Shown: one piece after another, positions 2,720 to 3,379 of the stretch
Layout of the letters: the number at the start of each line of letters is the position of its first letter
Position numbering within the stretch: position 1 is the first letter of the stretch
Assembly: GCF_013167455.1 (NCBI RefSeq)
Contig: NZ_CP038328.1
Source: Escherichia coli O157:H7
GTDB lineage: Bacteria; Pseudomonadota; Gammaproteobacteria; Enterobacterales; Enterobacteriaceae
Direction: 5' to 3' (one strand)
DNA: 64,000 nucleotides
Program-made: the position numbers and the translations under genes
The notes under the pieces: model-generated
The model's input: the letters and a program-made list of their open reading frames with translations, nothing else
What the model was told of the DNA's origin: nothing
Databases searched by the model: none

Positions 2720-3137
2720 TTGGCTGCATAAATAATATTTTAAGTTGCAAGTTGGCTATTCGTAGGAATAGAACCTTAGGCATGCTGAATGCGTTTTCTG
2801 AACATTGTTTTATAAACTGTGTCTGCTTGCTGTTGTGATCCTGCTTTTAGTGATGGTGATGATGGATTTCACCAGCAGGATAATGTTGGTACTGACTGAT
2901 GGCGCTCTGGTCTGCGGCATTGTGGTATTGCTGTGGCCGGTGATAAAAAGAAACAGCCTGCATAATGCTTGATTTTTTTGTTTACTGTTTATTAAAAATA
3001 CTACTGCATGGTGAATCCCCCTGTGCGGAGGGGCAATCAGCAACCAGGTATATGTGATAATCGCGGATTCAGGTGCTGATACTGAATTCACCGGGAGGCA
3101 CCCGGCACCATGCAAGAAAAAGAATGTGCATGCAAAC

Positions 3138-3166
3138 ATGCCCCTCTCCGGAGGGGCATTTTTTAT
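3138..3166 (+). terminator. Rho-independent terminator-like hairpin
   Basis: ATGCCCCTCTCCGGAGGGGCAT perfect stem followed by TTTTTT; a related palindrome (CCCCCTGTGCGGAGGGGC) lies at about 3016-3035. Confidence 0.4.
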
Positions 3167-3379
3167 GGGTAAAAAATGCCCGAATGGGTTCGGGCAATAG
3201 CATGAGATACTGATATTGTTGTGTTGTTATCGTGTGGATTTTAACCAGGGTTTATCAGGCTGCGCAACTGCGTGGCCTTTTTTCATTTCTTGGGCTGTAG
3301 TCCCCGTGTGTCATTCAGGCTTCCGGACTACAGCCCACTCCATATCTGATTTAATACACTATCCCGGCCGGGAGGAATA

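Follow-up and report, generated by a model that had tools for sequence, protein, structure and literature searches.

Two convergent small RNAs, a predicted second terminator and a predicted leader hairpin between a DUF3927 gene and nanS-p in prophage Sp17 of Escherichia coli O157:H7

We examined the region directly upstream of nanS-p in a stretch of 64,000 nucleotides (nt) from Escherichia coli O157:H7 (contig NZ_CP038328.1, assembly GCF_013167455.1), hereafter called the window. Positions 1118-5118 of the window are 100% identical to the reverse strand of the Sakai prophage Sp17, and the segment studied here, of which roughly 8,600 E. coli copies turned up, has 100% matches in many O157:H7 chromosomes. 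In this lambdoid prophage, 'moron' genes are inserted downstream of PR', with the Q/PR' region on one side and nanS-p and the lysis genes on the other; the region examined is the distal end of that insertion site. The gene order is serine/threonine phosphatase, antiterminator Q, a membrane protein of 252 amino acids (aa), a small open reading frame (ORF), nanS-p, holin, YdfR and a truncated lysozyme gene next to insertion sequence (IS) elements; nanS-p encodes the domains DUF1737, SASA and DUF6645 (Pfam). A first-pass annotation, made from the letters alone, had noted in this region a small hydrophobic ORF, two GC-rich palindromes and an inverted repeat, and had read them as a membrane peptide with its terminators or as RNA structures regulating nanS-p. 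We are highly confident that the region consists of a TciB-like DUF3927 gene, the STnc100-family small RNA (sRNA) EcOnc06, the sRNA AgvB2, a second terminator (T2) and a hairpin in the nanS-p leader. AgvB2, its terminator hairpin (3196-3177, minus strand) and T2 (3257-3283, plus strand) had escaped the first-pass annotation. AgvB2, EcOnc06 (STnc100) and the TciB-like DUF3927 gene are already described, and finding them here is a re-identification, not a discovery; the hairpin at 3291-3337 and T2 appear to be undescribed in the literature searched. The features are as follows.

2805-2972, plus strand: gene for a 55-aa small membrane protein with a TTG start (RefSeq WP_000499458.1, DUF3927 family protein)
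2969-2998, plus strand: putative sigma-70 promoter of the sRNA (sequence inspection), with -35 TTGATT at 2969-2974, an 18-nt spacer and -10 TAAAAA at 2993-2998
2980-3170, plus strand: extent of the Rfam match (RF02076) of an STnc100-family Hfq-binding sRNA (EcOnc06)
3018-3033, plus strand: stem-loop 1 (CCCCU / AGGGG; Rfam consensus structure), the first GC palindrome of the first-pass annotation
3138-3164, plus strand: predicted intrinsic terminator T1, a 9-bp stem (3138-3159) followed by a T-run (terminator scan, Rfam 3' hairpin), the second GC palindrome
3171-3232, minus strand: AgvB2 (EcOnc01b), an anti-GcvB sponge sRNA (RF02702)
3238-3267, minus strand: putative AgvB promoter (sequence inspection), with -35 TTGCGC at 3267-3262, an 18-nt spacer, -10 TAAAAT at 3243-3238 and a start at 3232
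3257-3283, plus strand: predicted intrinsic terminator T2, a 9-bp stem (hairpin 3257-3278) with T6 (terminator scan)
3291-3337, plus strand: predicted RNA hairpin in the nanS-p leader, with a 13-bp perfect stem and a 21-nt pyrimidine-rich loop (repeat search)
3370-3382, plus strand: nanS-p Shine-Dalgarno sequence GGGAGGA and ATG start (at 3380; ORF list), the downstream boundary of the module
1961-2719, plus strand: gene for the 252-aa membrane protein upstream (PHROG 1521, unknown function; no Pfam match)

For comparison, 95 related loci were fetched, comprising Shiga toxin (Stx) 1 and 2 phages, other prophages and 80 viral contigs found via the nanS-p N-terminus; single loci are given L numbers below. 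Identities, structures, covariation and homology were computed in this work. Hfq binding, Northern sizes and the mechanism of AgvB are taken from published papers; the promoters, the evolutionary scenario and the role of the leader hairpin we infer. The Sakai record NC_002695.2 differs from the version behind the papers of 2014-2017, published coordinates being shifted by +137 nt at Sp10. For this reason EcOnc06 was placed by its probe sequence, and the coordinates of Tree et al. and Hucker et al. are not directly usable. Terminator-like sites number 5 within 1600-3500 as against 1.5 +/- 1.1 in shuffles (terminator scan), and the inverted repeats of at least 12 nt whose arms lie within 60 nt of each other amount to 16 in the 64-kb window, 2 of them in this 490-nt stretch.

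The first element is the gene for a 55-aa TciB-like (DUF3927) predicted inner-membrane protein at 2805-2972. The first-pass annotation had described a 39-aa ORF at 2853-2972, and its ATG, its stop codon (2970-2972) and its translation are correct, but the ORF had been cut short: it is the C-terminal part of the 55-aa protein, whose frame is open from the TTG at 2805. Pfam PF13064 (DUF3927) matches the 55-aa form with 51 bits and the 39-aa form with 51.4 bits (cut-off 25), and PHROG 1470, named 'TciB-like inhibition of cell division or resistance to colicin', matches with 69.7 bits (E = 2.7e-19). The small ORF is conserved across prophages, with homologues in Sp10, in L008 and in many viral contigs that are 55 aa long and begin with a GTG overlapping the stop codon of a TerB/TciA gene (GTGA). 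Against the TerB/TciA-linked copies of L008 and Sp10, the window ORF aligns codon for codon, start on start and at the same length of 55 aa, which makes the 55-aa form the better gene model. In this form the protein has two hydrophobic segments in place of the single transmembrane helix proposed before. The TerB/TciA partner is missing upstream, where an 85-nt gap separates the unrelated membrane-protein gene (PHROG 1521) from the TTG start; the start-stop overlap with TerB/TciA is the usual context of the family and not a defining trait. Two TerB-linked variants compared with each other give a ratio of nonsynonymous to synonymous substitution rates (dN/dS) of 0.26, and the window type compared with either one gives about 0.6. 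A gene for a small membrane protein, as first proposed, is borne out by the Pfam DUF3927 and PHROG 1470 matches and by low ribosome footprints on the 55-aa paralogue in Sp10. For this paralogue, which the older Sakai annotation lists as ECs1960, the ribosome coverage value (RCV) was 1.63 in lysogeny broth (LB) and 0.10-0.14 in brain heart infusion (BHI); its product is a predicted inner-membrane protein with 2 transmembrane helices (PMC5597208 supplement). The locus tag ECs1960 has since been reassigned: it once denoted the 55-aa gene on the plus strand and now stands for a minus-strand ORF of 172 aa. The 'Tci' name, which alludes to tellurite or colicin resistance and to inhibition of cell division, goes back to sequence similarity. 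A literature search on DUF3927 and tciB found no experimental work, and no experimental test of a 'Tci' function was found in the literature.

Downstream of this gene, the plus strand matches the full Rfam model RF02076 (positions 1-206) with 144.7 bits versus a gathering score of 47 (E = 3.4e-33), identifying an STnc100-family sRNA. The two GC palindromes are present, CCCCCTGTGCGGAGGGGC at 3017-3034 and CCCCTCTCCGGAGGGGC at 3141-3157 followed by T6, and exceed chance, lying within Rfam matches with E = 3e-33 and 1e-18. Their earlier reading as terminators holds in part: the second is an intrinsic terminator, but of an sRNA and not of the ORF, and the first is the internal stem-loop 1; nothing shows a role in regulating nanS-p for either of them. 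EcOnc06, the second element, would be transcribed from a sigma-70 promoter that overlaps the stop codon of the small ORF, its -35 box TTGATT containing the TGA. The TTAAAA block of this putative promoter is invariant in 18 homologues. PasD2 of the enteropathogenic E. coli (EPEC) strain E2348/69 is preceded by the same promoter (TTGACT ... TTAAAAAA), and its published 5' end (741157) aligns to G3006 of the window. The conserved -10 block and the published PasD2 5' end together point to an independent sRNA promoter. By this homology the sRNA would start at about G3006, and the plus-strand transcript likely extends from 3006 to about 3165.

As a single sequence, the plus-strand sRNA folds with a minimum free energy (MFE) of -68.8 kcal/mol (z = -3.65). 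Among the 18 homologues, the consensus fold contains 26 pairs, 4 of them with compensatory changes: one double change falls in a long-range helix between GCAUGGUG (3006-3013) and CACCAUGC (3106-3113), and three pairs with compensatory changes in an internal helix. The helix GCAUGGUG / CACCAUGC would enclose stem-loop 1 and two further hairpins, followed by the A-rich stretch AAGAAAAAGAA and then by T1. In stem-loop 1 (columns 43-47 with 54-58), 4 of 5 pairs never vary, and two sequences lack the fifth; with no covariation found, the test neither supports nor contradicts this stem. For T1, variant stems in Stx-phage homologues keep their pairing (GCTCCTC...GAGGAGC, GCCTCTC...GGGGC). Each of the three predicted intrinsic terminators, T1 (3138-3159), T2 (3257-3278) and that of AgvB (3196-3177), consists of a GC-rich hairpin with a tail of at least 5 T.

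EcOnc06 was reported as an Hfq-crosslinked RNA in Sp17, seen as a peak in UV crosslinking and analysis of cDNA (CRAC) and as a band of about 177 nt on Northern blots (Tree et al. 2014, PMC4104026). Its Northern probe is the reverse complement of window positions 3048-3082 with 1 mismatch, and so detects the plus-strand RNA; the match is exact in Sp10. If the +137 shift also holds at Sp17, the published EcOnc06 peak would fall at about 3070-3132. In strain EDL933, STnc100 is present in 11 copies, all of them transcribed, and one copy of 191 nt has been confirmed by Northern blot (PMC5331693).

On the minus strand, the Rfam model RF02702 identifies AgvB2 with 96.5 bits versus a gathering score of 56 (E = 1.3e-18), and 62 of 62 positions are equal to the consensus. 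Its 5' end carries ACAACACAACAA; the RNA reads CGAUAACAACACAACAAUAUC... and continues into the hairpin 3196-3177 and U6 (fold z = -3.9). This is the build of AgvB, a variable 5' region with a mimic of GcvB targets followed by a conserved 3' part of about 42 nt with a Rho-independent terminator. In its putative promoter, the GCGCAA block is invariant and the -10 box is conserved within the AgvB/AsxR type, with TATTAT in the other type of anti-sRNA. AgvB2 is convergent, tail to tail, with the plus-strand sRNA, and the moron stands on one side of the pair and the conserved ORF on the other. Tree et al. (2014, PMC4104026) place AgvB1 in Sp10 and AgvB2 (EcOnc01b) in Sp17, and describe for Sp3, 4, 5, 9, 10, 11, 15 and 17 convergent pairs of Hfq-bound sRNAs flanked by the moron coding sequence and a conserved ORF downstream. 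The same study describes AgvB as a 60-nt, Hfq-dependent RNA whose 5' CACAACA-type motif mimics GcvB target sites; AgvB (identical sequence) sponges the R1 seed of GcvB on Hfq, derepresses DppA and improves competitiveness and growth in bovine terminal rectal mucus. The third element is AgvB2, a minus-strand RNA of 60-62 nt that, by this published work, sponges GcvB.

Two weak Rfam hits, Phe_leader (26.8 bits) and GcvB (20.7 bits), are below their gathering scores and were rejected, being explained by the terminator hairpins and by the AgvB antisense. The GcvB hit is at 3136-3284 on the plus strand (E = 0.17), where the sequence opposite the AgvB 5' end (UUGUUGUGUUGUU) resembles the R1 seed of GcvB and is followed by T2. 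Reading through T1 would thus yield an RNA with a GcvB-like seed and a proper terminator, fully complementary to AgvB.

The second plus-strand terminator, T2, contains the putative AgvB -35 box in its loop and 5' arm. Among 20 variants, 89% of its cells form standard pairs when the plus strand is read, as against 72% for the minus strand; 31 of the plus-strand cells are G·U. Three loci without T1 and without an anti-sRNA (L066, L085 and E2348/69) lead from an STnc100-like core through a U-rich linker into a T2-homologous hairpin, and this T2-type hairpin, GGCTGCGCAT(T/G)GCGC(A/G)GCC with T8, is their sole terminator. The published PasD 3' sequence and probe match the T2-homologous hairpin in L085, L066 and E2348/69, and T2 is therefore the counterpart of the PasD terminator. 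We did not find this homology stated in the literature examined. In our proposal, the block of T1 and the AgvB gene would sit between the ancestral sRNA core and its original terminator. T2 would serve as a back-up terminator from which the AgvB promoter would also draw its -35 box and an upstream A-tract. In the lysogen, T1 and T2 would halt moron and sRNA transcription before nanS-p and the lysis genes, and the Q-modified polymerase would read through both.

Between T2 and nanS-p lies the inverted repeat, to which the first-pass annotation had given arms of 12 bp just upstream of the ribosome-binding site (RBS) of nanS-p. The repeat is there, and its arms are perfect over 13 bp (3291-3303 and 3325-3337, with 21 nt between); it ends 33 nt upstream of the nanS-p GGGAGGA, which is invariant in 20 of 20 variants. 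The hairpin dominates the MFE fold of the nanS-p leader (-35.3 kcal/mol, z = -3.15). Among 20 distinct variants, 4 of the 13 stem pairs change on both sides yet stay paired, one at the base (U-A/C-G), two in the center (U-A/C-G, A-U/G-C) and one at the top (C-G/A-U). The covariation score was reached by 0 of 500 shuffles, and sliding the partners abolishes pairing. Pairing is kept at 92.7% on the plus strand versus 87.3% on the minus strand, with 17 versus 3 G·U cells. The loop measures 21-30 nt across variants and is always 67-78% pyrimidine, with CUUCC / UCUCC motifs (count on the alignment). The hairpin is present in Stx1, Stx2 and non-Stx lambdoid prophages. Judged from its sequence, the inverted repeat is a conserved plus-strand RNA hairpin, and it is the only candidate cis-element for nanS-p that we see in the region.

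Pairing of the loop with the nanS-p RBS or start codon (pseudoknot, anti-RBS) was considered but not adopted: duplex energies of -10.7 to -16.8 kcal/mol (z from +1.2 to -2.0) are no better than those of shuffled loops. An apparent covariation of TGTCAT/ATGACA versus TGCCAT/ATGGCA (TGYCAT / ATGRCA) breaks down in L005 and L006 and is missing from L007, L017 and L061. A base-composition effect of the pyrimidine-rich loops on the RBS may exist. A sigma-70 promoter for nanS-p between T2 and the ATG was rejected, no convincing match being seen by scan or inspection. The papers searched on the flanks of nanS-p mention neither the hairpin nor T2.

The 13-bp repeat could alternatively act as DNA, that is, as a recombination linker or a protein-binding palindrome, or be without function. 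It does sit at a mosaic boundary whose flanking sequences recombine among prophages, its outer 6 bp are nearly invariant, possibly through sequence conservation rather than pairing, and loop-RBS pairing does not rise above that of shuffled loops. However, the four pairs that change on both sides while paired and the strand bias of the G·U cells (17 on the plus versus 3 on the minus strand) argue for a structure formed in RNA, and a spacer of 21-30 nt is ill-suited to a dimeric DNA-binding site. We regard a DNA-level or absent role as unlikely, though it is the rival that survives best.

The related loci also bear on whether the palindromes belong to the small ORF. An STnc100-family match is present upstream of nanS-p in 20 of 20 representative loci scanned, and the morons ahead of the sRNA module in these loci are stx1AB, stx2AB, tRNAs, TerB-DUF3927 or membrane protein-DUF3927; a tRNA search of positions 1-8000 of the window found no tRNA genes. 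The minus-strand partner is of at least two types, the AgvB/AsxR type and one with a different body and terminator. Under the first-pass proposal, the small ORF would be an independent membrane-peptide gene, and the GC palindromes its terminators or cis-regulators of nanS-p. The ORF is indeed a true family member (Pfam, PHROG), T1 would also stop any transcript that reads through it, and the hairpin at 3291-3337 is conserved and lies within the nanS-p leader. But the same sRNA module stands behind stx1B, stx2B or tRNA genes where the DUF3927 ORF is absent, a full-length STnc100 match takes in both palindromes, which pair in the way the model predicts, the conserved -10 block and the PasD2 5' end indicate an independent promoter, and two terminators and a convergent gene part the palindromes from nanS-p. 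Taken together, this proposal is improbable.

Some prophages carry two tandem STnc100-family copies about 470 nt apart (L007, 1021-1214 and 1490-1699; L011, 1007-1197 and 1476-1684; L013, 1021-1214 and 1490-1678). In L013, the second copy is followed by the anti-adapter gene iraM and then by a truncated remnant of nanS-p (DUF1737).

A further candidate is a small protein encoded across T2 and the hairpin (about 3254-3349), where the Sp10 homologue is XECs190, a 34-aa ribosome-profiling candidate. Hucker et al. (2017) list it at the corresponding place in Sp10, giving an RCV of 0.40 and a coverage of 0.69 in LB, and the frame is open for 31 codons in the window. Across the 20 variants, however, the frame ends after 15 to 47 codons, and the protein is wholly altered past the T-run by 1-nt and 4-nt indels; its start would be a non-canonical ATC, the authors' tables label it 'pseudo', and conservation follows paired stems with a variable loop. 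We consider such a protein very improbable. Sp10 (L015, about 2085-2095) and L033 carry a 4-nt duplication in the right arm of the hairpin (GGACTACAGCCAGCCCA), which in the Sp10 copy leads to a bulged stem and a changed XECs190 frame. Coding potential of plus-strand ORFs of 48 and 54 aa was rejected (Pfam search). Least probable of all is the 109-aa minus-strand ORF at 3139-2810 (Sakai ECs_3499, 'hypothetical protein'), which is open and annotated in NC_002695.2 and resembles the 172-aa minus-strand ORF ECs_1960 annotated in Sp10, but Pfam gives no match for either of the two even at E <= 1, the 109-aa frame is antisense to both the DUF3927 gene and the structured sRNA, the variable region of the sRNA has indels of many lengths in relatives, and the NCBI annotation of PV15-279 drops the ORF and calls the plus-strand DUF3927 gene.

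Having identified the elements, we put forward a joint reading of T2 and the hairpin, tentatively and at somewhat less than even odds. In it, the hairpin at 3291-3337 would be a cis-element acting on how the nanS-p and lysis portion of the late transcript is stabilized, processed or translated, T2 would be an ancestral terminator of the PasD/STnc100 type, and the anti-sRNA gene with T1 would be a cassette inserted inside an older sRNA gene. Our best guess for the hairpin is that it could act as a structural barrier or stabilizer at the 5' side of the nanS-p/lysis part of the Q-dependent late mRNA. Were the cassette reading of T2 true, plus-strand read-through and AgvB initiation would be mechanically coupled.

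A number of points weigh against our account of the locus. For the small gene, the TTG start has no visible Shine-Dalgarno sequence, the first 16 codons show a dN/dS of about 1.5 relative to the TerB-linked type with window-type residues there unconstrained, and 12 viral loci (L044, L047, L049 and 9 others; about 931-1091) have a DUF3927 allele in which a tryptophan codon has become a stop (...GIVVLL*PVIK...). In view of these three observations the gene may be weakly expressed or decaying, and the loss of the conserved tryptophan codon in 12 viral loci suggests that it is dispensable in some prophages. The name 'TciB' for this ORF is an annotation label only. For the sRNAs, both promoters and the G3006 start were deduced for this copy, a simple promoter scan found neither promoter (EcOnc06, AgvB), and the Northern size of about 177 nt reported for EcOnc06 exceeds the predicted 160 nt by 10-17 nt. 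For the hairpin, about half of the variants leave the two central stem pairs open, and the relatives represent only 3-4 independent lineages, so that the covariation counts are inflated by shared ancestry. Finally, T1 and AgvB were either inserted here or lost in the PasD type, and the data do not set the order.

The locus is of interest in several respects. AgvB counts among the founding examples of phage-encoded sRNA sponges and affects the fitness of enterohemorrhagic E. coli in the bovine niche. A recent machine-learning study (PMC12711010) connected the homologous STnc100/EcOnc27 copy downstream of stx2 with clinical outcome. Annotation stands to benefit as well: a spurious antisense ORF is still found at this place in the original Sakai record, and the sRNAs go unmarked by annotation pipelines. 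Should the hairpin and the overlap of the T2 terminator with a promoter prove real, the late operon with its Shiga toxin and lysis genes would gain a further layer of cis-regulation.

Several observations concern the neighboring genes. Although the two strains have identical DNA there, the 252-aa membrane-protein gene is a frameshifted pseudogene in the PV15-279 annotation and intact (ECs_3500, 'membrane protein') in that of Sakai; the pair of this gene and the DUF3927 gene also precedes PasD2 in EPEC E2348/69. Downstream of nanS-p, a 12-bp hairpin followed by a T-run (AGAGCCATCAGTAGTTAACTGGTGGCTTT TTTATTG) is present at 5316-5354 on the plus strand, between the nanS-p end (5233) and the holin gene (RefSeq start about 5383), and may serve as a terminator or form the end of an sRNA derived from a 3' untranslated region. 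In EPEC, the space between nanS-p and holin contains PasA on the opposite strand; a BLAST search for a PasA homologue between nanS-p and the holin gene gave no match. The lysis cassette is disrupted at window positions 6283-8419, just past the start of the lysozyme gene, with IS66-family tnpA-/tnpB-like ORFs at 6283-7028, a broken transposase, and an IS3-family transposase at 7529-8419 on the minus strand. With its lysozyme gene marked as truncated (RefSeq), the prophage is probably unable to lyse the cell alone.

Compared with known systems, the locus is closest to the prophage sRNA pairs of Tree et al. 2014 (AsxR/EcOnc27 in Sp5, AgvB1 in Sp10, AgvB2/EcOnc06 in Sp17), being the same locus with the same layout. 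There is no essential difference; T2, the hairpin 3291-3337 and the DUF3927 gene are not described in the portion of that paper available to us. With Rfam STnc100, an sRNA family of Salmonella and Enterobacteriaceae prophages, the plus-strand sRNA shares a full-length model match; it differs in that the first ~26 nt of the model correspond here to the putative promoter and not to RNA. The small ORF resembles the tciA-tciB moron pair of lambdoid and N15-type phages in matching PHROG 1470 and DUF3927 and in its alignment with TerB/TciA-linked copies. It differs from that pair in that TerB/TciA is replaced by the gene for the 252-aa membrane protein, the GTGA overlap is lost and the N-terminal 16 codons have diverged.

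PasD1 and PasD2 of EPEC E2348/69 (Pearl Mizrahi et al. 2021; Zhu, Shabalina & Storz 2026 preprint) occupy the same position, directly upstream of the sialate esterase gene. PasD has neither T1 nor a convergent anti-sRNA gene, and its core runs via a UGUGAG seed region into the T2-type terminator, whereas the window RNA ends at T1, 120 nt before T2. In the window, the core does not lead directly into a GGCUGCGC...GCC terminator; it has its own T1, and the AgvB gene intervenes. A BLAST comparison of PasD2 with the window gave no match, and the homologous parts of the two are only the promoter, the first 13 nt and T2. In these parts the likeness is close: the promoters are near-identical, both RNAs begin with GCAUGGUGAAUCC, and the PasD terminator GGCUGCGCAUUGCGCAGCC, followed by U8, is homologous to T2 of the window. 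A structural kinship of PasD with STnc100 has likewise been reported (Zhu, Shabalina & Storz 2026 preprint).

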